Assembly: GCF_003018115.1 (NCBI RefSeq)
Contig: NZ_CP027457.1
Reading direction: 5' to 3' (one strand)
Length of the DNA stretch: 64,000 bases
Origin: Escherichia coli
Lineage (GTDB): Bacteria; Pseudomonadota; Gammaproteobacteria; Enterobacterales; Enterobacteriaceae
The notes under the pieces were generated by a model, which had not been told where the DNA came from, ran no database searches, and saw nothing but the letters and a program-made list of their open reading frames with translations. A program made the translations under genes and the position numbers. Shown one piece after another: positions 25,108 to 25,831 of the stretch. The stretch's first letter is position 1. Each line of letters opens with the position of its first letter.

Positions 25108-25128
25108 GCGAATTTTAGTTCACATAGA

Positions 25129-25151
25129 CCCTGCTTCGGCGGGGTTTTTTT
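25129..25151 (+). terminator. rho-independent terminator of narGHJI
   Basis: ccctgc-ttcg-gcgggg hairpin followed by TTTTTTT. Confidence 0.75.
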
Positions 25152-25182
25152 ATGGGCACGGTGCGGGGTGAGTTGTCGGATG

Positions 25183-25207
25183 CGCTTCGCTTATCCGACC
25201 TACAGGG
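25183..25207. repeat. REP-like palindromic element
   Basis: gtcggatgcgcttcgcttatccgacctaca resembles the REP consensus (GCCGGATG...TTATCCGGCCTACA). Confidence 0.5.
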
Positions 25208-25290
25208 GAGGATATTGTAGGCCCGGTAAACGTGGTGCCATCGGGCAAAATTAGCTCGGAGTAACAGGTTTTGATTATTTAAGGAAGCGA

Positions 25291-25468
25291 TGGTGGTGAG
25301 GGAAGGATTACTCAGCGCTGCGCGCTTCGCCCTTCGGGTCGTTGCCAGCGGCAACGCTCTCTCGCTGGCGCTCAAGTCGAACCTTGGTCGAAGCTTCTCA
25401 TCCTTCCCCGCTTGGGCAGAATATTTAATTACGGATTCGTTGGGAAGTTCAGGGACTTTTGAAAGTGA
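25291..25468 (-). repeat. 178-bp tyrT-operon distal repeat unit
   Basis: begins exactly 178 bp downstream of the tyrV 3' end with a degenerate copy of the tRNA 3' 19 nt (tggtggtgagggaaggatt). Confidence 0.55.
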
Positions 25469-25553
25469 TGGTGGTGGGGGAAGGATTCGAACCTTCGAAG
25501 TCGATGACGGCAGATTTACAGTCTGCTCCCTTTGGCCGCTCGGGAACCCCACC
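25469..25553 (-). tRNA. tyrV: tRNA-Tyr (GUA), promoter-distal copy
   Basis: 85-nt exact reverse complement of tRNA-Tyr1 including the anticodon loop and encoded CCA. Confidence 0.95.
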
Positions 25554-25587
25554 AGGGGTAATTCAAATTTTGAGGTAATGCTTGAGG

Positions 25588-25672
25588 TGGTGGTGGGGGA
25601 AGGATTCGAACCTTCGAAGTCGATGACGGCAGATTTACAGTCTGCTCCCTTTGGCCGCTCGGGAACCCCACC
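25588..25672 (-). tRNA. tyrT: tRNA-Tyr (GUA), promoter-proximal copy
   Basis: second identical 85-nt tRNA-Tyr, 34 nt upstream of the first. Confidence 0.95.
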
Positions 25673-25722
25673 ACGGGGTAATGCTTTTTACTGGCCTGCT
25701 CCCTTATCGGGAAGCGGGGCGC

Positions 25723-25750
25723 ATCATATCAAATGACGCGCCGCTGTAAA
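25723..25750 (-). promoter_or_regulatory. tyrT promoter (-35 TTTACA, -10 TATGAT, GC-rich discriminator)
   Basis: reverse strand reads TTTACAGCGGCGCGTCATTTGATATGATGCGCCCCGCTTCCCGATAAGGG, the classical stringently controlled tyrT promoter. Confidence 0.8.
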
Positions 25751-25831
25751 GTGTTACGTTGAGAAAAATGAACTGGTTGCGTAATTTTCATCCGTAACGG
25801 ATTAAAGGTAACCAGTTATTTTTGCTGGCGA

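Follow-up and report, generated by a model that had tools for sequence, protein, structure and literature searches.

The tyrT-tyrV operon, its 178-bp repeat, and the RtT RNA were described between 1978 and 1991, and the version from Escherichia coli K-12 MG1655, tyrT-tyrV-rttR(tpr) (b1231, b1230, b4425, and b1229), was used as reference for the comparison presented here. In the account given in PMC8144298, Egan and Landy (1978) were the first to describe tRNA-linked repeats (TLRs) of this kind, and the catalogue compiled by Rudd in 1999 comprises 22 copies at ten K-12 loci. [quoted passage not shown] Related trailer RNAs are RrA, RrB, and RrF, encoded behind 5S rRNA genes (rrnA, rrnB, and rrnD); they also end in an 18-bp copy of the upstream 3' end and are likewise co-transcribed and then processed, but they follow rRNA instead of tRNA and associate with Hfq and CsrA in vitro (PMC8144298). 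The TLRs of tRNA operons, including those of tyrT, are predicted non-binders of CsrA with scores <0.01 (PMC8144298). In a survey of 27 genomes, rttR has already been treated as a multi-copy, variably present sRNA family (PMC3318445).

We analyzed a 64-kb stretch of E. coli DNA, referred to as the window, in which a sequence-only reading had placed a tyrT-tyrV operon at 25113-25760. ARAGORN identified exactly two tRNA genes in the window, both tRNA-Tyr(GTA) on the minus strand, and the gene bounds obtained (Table 1) agreed with the two identical 85-nt genes spaced by 34 nt that had been proposed; both 85-mers were equal to K-12 tyrT/tyrV. The locus is situated between purU and narI, as deduced from the open reading frames and from the RefSeq annotation of an identical strain. 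In a DNA similarity search, an 801-nt segment around the locus was 100% identical to E. coli F9792, for which narI, an RtT sRNA, two tRNA-Tyr genes, and purU are annotated in RefSeq. The assignment as tyrT-tyrV was borne out by this position and by the matching F9792 annotation, and the exact allele has already been annotated by genome pipelines. Altogether, 23 records were at least 99% identical to the exact 801-nt sequence. The low end (25113-25152) of the interval originally assigned to the operon had to be removed, as it carries the narI terminator hairpin and is part of the convergent nar operon.

All operon features are encoded on the minus strand and run from high to low window coordinates in the transcript order promoter, 5' leader, tyrT, 34-nt spacer, tyrV, 46-nt trailer, and 132-nt RtT RNA. 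Taken together, it is highly probable that the region represents the E. coli tyrTV operon in a common allele with one TLR, that its transcript is processed as in K-12, and that it came to differ from K-12 by unequal recombination. The operon found here is an ordinary, common natural variant.

Table 1. Features of the tyrTV locus and its boundary (window coordinates)
Feature	Position	Strand	Evidence or remark
Predicted tyrT sigma-70 promoter	25723-25750	-	Promoter scan, 10/12 consensus matches
Segment from -10 to mature tyrT 5' end	25673-25722	-	Identical to K-12
tyrT, tRNA-Tyr(GUA), 85 nt	25588-25672	-	ARAGORN; Rfam tRNA, 53.4 bits; exact K-12 tyrT/tyrV match
tyrT-tyrV spacer, 34 nt, CCTCAAGCATTACCTCAAAATTTGAATTACCCCT	25554-25587	-	K-12 comparison
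tyrV, tRNA-Tyr(GUA), 85 nt, same sequence as tyrT	25469-25553	-	ARAGORN; Rfam; repeat search; exact K-12 match
tyrV 3' trailer, 46 nt, C-rich/G-poor; opens the 178-nt tRNA-linked repeat unit	25423-25468	-	K-12 repeat alignment; composition
RtT RNA core, structured part of the tRNA-linked repeat	25291-25422	-	Rfam RF00391
Counterpart of the K-12 tpr ORF, broken	25312-25401	-	In-frame TGA at codon 10 (25372-25374)
Degenerate copy of the tRNA-Tyr 3' end including CCA, 18/19	25291-25309	-	Repeat search; unit alignment
Two inverted degenerate REP-like 30-mers	25173-25203; 25217-25247	+; -	25/30 each to a Z2-type REP consensus
Intrinsic terminator of narGHJI, convergent operon, locus boundary	25126-25152	+	9-bp stem, then T run

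A classical tyrT promoter had been proposed ahead of the tRNA genes. In agreement, the scan revealed a promoter-like site on the minus strand with the predicted -35 element TTTACA (25750-25745), a 16-nt spacer, and a TG-extended -10 element TATGAT (25728-25723), followed by the G+C-rich stretch GCGCCCCGC; the 159 nt from the purU stop codon to the tyrT 5' end were 100% identical to K-12. From the K-12 literature, we take the segment between the -10 element and the mature tyrT 5' end to include the transcription start and a 5' leader of approximately 40 nt that is cut off by RNase P. Between tyrV and the repeat, the scan gave neither a promoter-like nor a terminator-like site on the minus strand.

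An intrinsic terminator for tyrTV was not found on the minus strand, and the sole strong hairpin with a T run at the locus is the one listed in Table 1. It was considered as terminator of tyrTV and rejected: its T run is present on the plus strand only, where it serves narI, the end of which is at 25107. A crude profile of C and G composition revealed C-rich, G-poor stretches in the tyrTV transcript after tyrV and after RtT. Rho-dependent termination has been reported for K-12 tyrTV and would fit the C-rich, G-poor stretches observed here; a Rho-type stop is proposed because the minus strand lacks an intrinsic terminator. Following the K-12 literature, RNase P would cut the primary transcript at the 5' ends of both tRNAs, and RNase E together with 3' exonucleases would process the trailers. 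The tRNA-like 3' end of RtT would allow the same machinery to free RtT as a discrete by-product RNA, and Rho would stop transcription in the C-rich, G-poor sequence past the repeat.

The sequence downstream of tyrV gave a full-length match to the RtT model (Rfam RF00391, model positions 1-130 of 130) with 131.4 bits at a gathering threshold of 45 (E = 1e-28), which confirmed the suspected membership of the 178-bp rtT repeat family. The degenerate copy of the tRNA 3' end, predicted to lie exactly 178 bp downstream, was recovered as well: AATCCTTCCCTCACCACCA aligned against AATCCTTCCCCCACCACCA of the tRNA with 18 of 19 positions identical and one C-to-T change, and this pseudo 3' end finishes exactly 178 nt past the 3' end (CCA) of tyrV. 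The similarity of the copy to the tRNA is far beyond chance, because RF00391 matches over its full length at the E value given. In the register of Egan and Landy, the 19 nt constitute a 0.14 partial second repeat. A repeat search identified a three-copy repeat family at the locus with spacings of 178 and 119 nt. With its full-length model match, the copy of the tRNA 3' end, the location inside a tRNA operon, and the retained helices, the window unit resembles the RF00391/TLR family in all of these respects and is materially no different from it; it is present as a single copy and carries three private substitutions (unit positions 38, 122, and 170).

The secondary structure of RtT was evaluated with an alignment of 83 distinct units from Enterobacteriaceae. 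The seven helices had 97.3% of their cells paired, and seven pairs were altered on both sides; pair columns 51-68 occurred as UA, CG, or GC and columns 103-116 as GC or AU. In controls, none of 500 shuffles matched the observed values, and slid helices were paired to 36-50%. Sequence conservation among the 83 units was very high. Since the single-sequence fold of the 178-nt unit was no better than that of shuffled sequences (z = -0.16), support for the predicted structure is comparative only. Covariation support for RtT has also been published (bioRxiv 10.1101/2020.02.04.933952). The predicted outer helix is formed by GGGGAAGGAU and the tRNA 3'-end copy. Over 22 nt, the 5' strand of this helix (25388-25409) shows 86% complementarity to the 3' ends of the two tRNAs (25477-25498 and 25596-25617), and in the precursor it could pair with an upstream tRNA instead of its own 3' end.

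In addition to RtT RNA, the repeat family had been expected to encode the tiny tpr ORF. The RNA part of this expectation held, whereas tpr is not intact here, with a TGA at codon 10; the window contains no intact 29-codon ORF for the protamine-like protein assigned to b1229. The change that breaks tpr is the same C-to-T substitution that is present in repeat 3 of K-12, where only repeat 1 carries the intact 29-codon ORF. Among the 83 distinct units from different species, the ORF was intact in two and stopped after five codons in 50. Because it is intact in only 2 of 83 units, the comparison speaks against tpr as a conserved coding gene.

Two longer open reading frames overlap the operon, one of 145 amino acids at 25115-25552 (minus strand) and one of 148 amino acids at 25290-25736 (plus strand). 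Both cross the tRNA genes and the repeat and were rejected as genes; they are very probably spurious. The plus-strand ORF starts with ATGGTGGTG, a motif that is shared with K-12 ychS and represents the antisense of the tRNA 3'-end copy; it is equally likely to be spurious.

A REP-like element had been noted beyond the repeat. The two inverted 30-mers found there (Table 1) are in favor of this label, and changes in their stems retain pairing. The region 25173-25247 is identical in K-12, but no REP is annotated there in the K-12 record, BLAST located it at one place per genome (a search that is insensitive for degenerate 30-nt elements), and its fold was not unusually stable (z-score -0.96). The REP-like label is thus weakly supported.

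At some distance from the operon, two matches to the antitoxin RNA rdlD (Rfam RF01813) were obtained on the plus strand at 8560-8625 (84 bits) and 9095-9160 (92 bits), a pair indicative of a tandem ldr/rdl type I toxin-antitoxin cluster. Matches to isrK (51 bits), C4 antisense RNA (69 bits), and sok (117 bits) were located within approximately 1 kb of each other (60495-60679 and 61388-61562, both plus strand). This group is suggestive of a prophage or cryptic mobile element that carries a hok/sok module close to the right window end.

Alignment with K-12 yielded a tyrT-tyrV spacer of 34 nt in the window versus 209 nt in K-12 and 1.14 versus 3.14 distal 178-bp units. The window therefore shares neither spacer length nor repeat number with K-12, and the initial impression of a shorter spacer and fewer repeats was correct. 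In transcript orientation, BLAST placed the K-12 units at 538-715, 716-893, and 894-1071, followed by a 25-nt partial copy. The K-12 spacer holds a further, diverged unit (approximately 83% identity by BLAST), whereas the spacer of the window is devoid of a unit; its 34 nt align, with one mismatch, to the final 34 nt of the spacer in K-12. The distal flank, which spans the 183 nt between the partial copy and the stop codon of narI, was 100% identical to K-12. In sum, the window sequence equals that of K-12 minus 175 nt of the spacer and minus 356 nt (two distal units), and both deletion junctions are located at copies of the tRNA 3' end, i.e., at repeat boundaries. The two operons have in common the position between purU and narI, the tRNA sequences, the promoter/leader region and distal flank, the repeat family, and the 19-nt overlap with the tRNA; the window is distinguished from K-12 by the 34-nt spacer, 1.14 units, the broken tpr, and the C-to-T change in the pseudo 3' end.

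The mechanism behind the difference from K-12 is most likely a recA-type unequal homologous recombination between direct repeats, for which sequences ranging from the 19-nt tRNA 3' end up to the 178-nt units would be available. In the single unit of the window, the 5' part has the variants of K-12 repeat 1 and the 3' part those of repeat 3, a mosaic pattern expected if repeats 1 and 3 had undergone unequal crossover. Gene conversion could also yield the repeat-1/repeat-3 pattern, and it is kept in consideration because units are mosaic in several other strains too. The change may have proceeded in either direction, as a contraction here or as an expansion in K-12.

The frequency of the alleles was estimated from the similarity search. 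The K-12 type spacer of 209 nt was present in 1,921 of 5,426 complete E. coli genomes (approximately 35%; exact count at a coverage of at least 80%), a set of genomes that is a biased sample of the species. The search joins pieces up to 500 nt apart, and an insertion of 175-178 nt leaves the coverage unchanged; 60-row samples of the match ranking were therefore used for the other alleles, giving frequencies accurate to about ±12%. In an evenly spaced sample of E. coli genomes, the doublet with the short spacer was found in 28 of 60 rows (approximately 47%). Three spacers with a true RtT-type unit and seven single tRNA genes were also counted in the 60 rows, and 21 rows were ambiguous, a fraction that agrees with the 35% share of the K-12 type. 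The complete layout of the window was recovered as one colinear piece in 11 of the 60 sampled rows, or about one genome in five.

Annotated E. coli genomes contain further alleles, with two tRNA genes and two units, with a repeat-bearing spacer and two or three units, with one tRNA gene and one unit, with two tRNA genes and no unit, or, in the ST131 strain EC958, with one tRNA gene and no unit. The copy number of the repeat at tyrTV hence ranges from 0 to 4 within the species, and the difference from K-12 is an ordinary population polymorphism that is not peculiar to the genome from which the window derives. In E. coli AGR4587 and in EC958 (ST131), genes of the sterol desaturase and fatty acid desaturase families end 16 nt from the 3' end of tRNA-Tyr; neither strain has an RtT unit there, and narI was absent from the 1.5 kb examined on that side. 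The tRNA-proximal segment has been replaced or interrupted in these two strains. In E. coli MS20654 and AH19E045, an allele that otherwise resembles the window has an IS4-family transposase inserted within the narJ-ychJ interval, and the matched span is approximately 1.2-1.3 kb longer than the query.

A pattern scan with one genome per species (tRNA 3' end, 20-50 N, tRNA 5' end) detected tandem tRNA-Tyr genes in 69 Enterobacteriaceae representatives; as the pattern also matches the pseudo 3' end in long spacers, the 69 matches mix short and repeat-bearing spacers, which were sorted afterwards by BLAST. In most of the representatives, the spacer measures 22-39 nt and the number of RtT units is 0-4 or more. 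The arrangement of two tRNA genes with a short spacer and one unit was also present in Salmonella enterica subsp. arizonae, Enterobacter cloacae, and Atlantibacter. Repeat units of the spacer type form a separate, older lineage that is 80-85% identical to the distal units and has GGGTGAG instead of GGATGAG; they were found in Escherichia (including E. albertii), Klebsiella, Citrobacter, Kluyvera, and Leclercia. Because the spacer-type unit is common to several genera, the long-spacer form is old and not specific to K-12. In Citrobacter sp. MGH106 (7081-7460), three consecutive short-spacer junctions precede two RtT units; these junctions imply a tandem array of four tRNA-Tyr genes at a spacing of 120 nt. 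Judged from this strain, the number of tRNA genes would expand as well as that of the repeats.

The short spacer and the single repeat might be explained trivially by an assembly artefact, since short-read assembly can merge tandem repeats of this size (119-178 bp) into fewer copies, and only 23 records matched the exact 801 nt at an identity of at least 99%. The same colinear layout, however, was obtained in about one-fifth of the sampled complete E. coli genomes, which originate from many laboratories, it recurs in S. arizonae, E. cloacae, and Atlantibacter, and the junctions are clean and located at repeat boundaries; we regard a collapsed assembly as scarcely credible. Only slightly better placed, and still very improbable, is the interpretation of the repeat as the scar of an integration event, with the 19-nt duplicates of the tRNA 3' end as attL and attR of an element inserted in tyrV. 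Duplication of a tRNA 3' end is a hallmark of integrase-mediated insertion into tRNA genes, and the desaturase-family genes positioned 16 nt from the tyrV end in some E. coli strains, where the RtT unit is absent, are compatible with such an event. Yet no integrase or other cargo lies in the 159 nt that separate the two copies of the 3' end, the units occur in head-to-tail arrays and also between the two tRNA genes, they fold into a predicted conserved structure with covariation, and repeats of the same kind follow other tRNA and 5S rRNA genes (PMC8144298).

With an unequally recombined natural allele as the preferred explanation for the layout, the role of the repeat itself has to be considered. 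RtT has been discussed as a trans-acting regulatory sRNA in the stringent response or in recovery from starvation, the dose of which would be set by copy number. Sequence and structure are strongly conserved across genera, interaction with Hfq and CsrA has been seen in vitro for the related TLRs behind 5S rRNA (PMC8144298), and RtT levels shift in some transcriptome studies (PMC4147364; bioRxiv 10.1101/2024.07.17.603846). According to the account in PMC8144298, however, the original claim of a function in starvation recovery was retracted because a neighbouring ORF turned out to be responsible for the phenotype. RtT is missing at the locus in many lineages of E. coli, among them ST131, the TLRs of tRNA operons score <0.01 as predicted CsrA binders (PMC8144298), and RtT has no known target, so that a regulatory role in trans is doubtful. 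To a similar degree, we consider it rather unlikely that the number of TLR copies (0-4) tunes processing or termination of the tRNA-Tyr precursor or supplies a trans-acting RNA. If this were the case, the one-copy allele without tpr would represent the minimal natural configuration, and any function would reside in the RNA instead of the tpr peptide.

At the tyrTV locus, K-12 is not typical of E. coli, and the 34-nt spacer is the widespread form in Enterobacteriaceae. The natural series of alleles with 0-4 units provides a ready resource for testing the function of TLRs.
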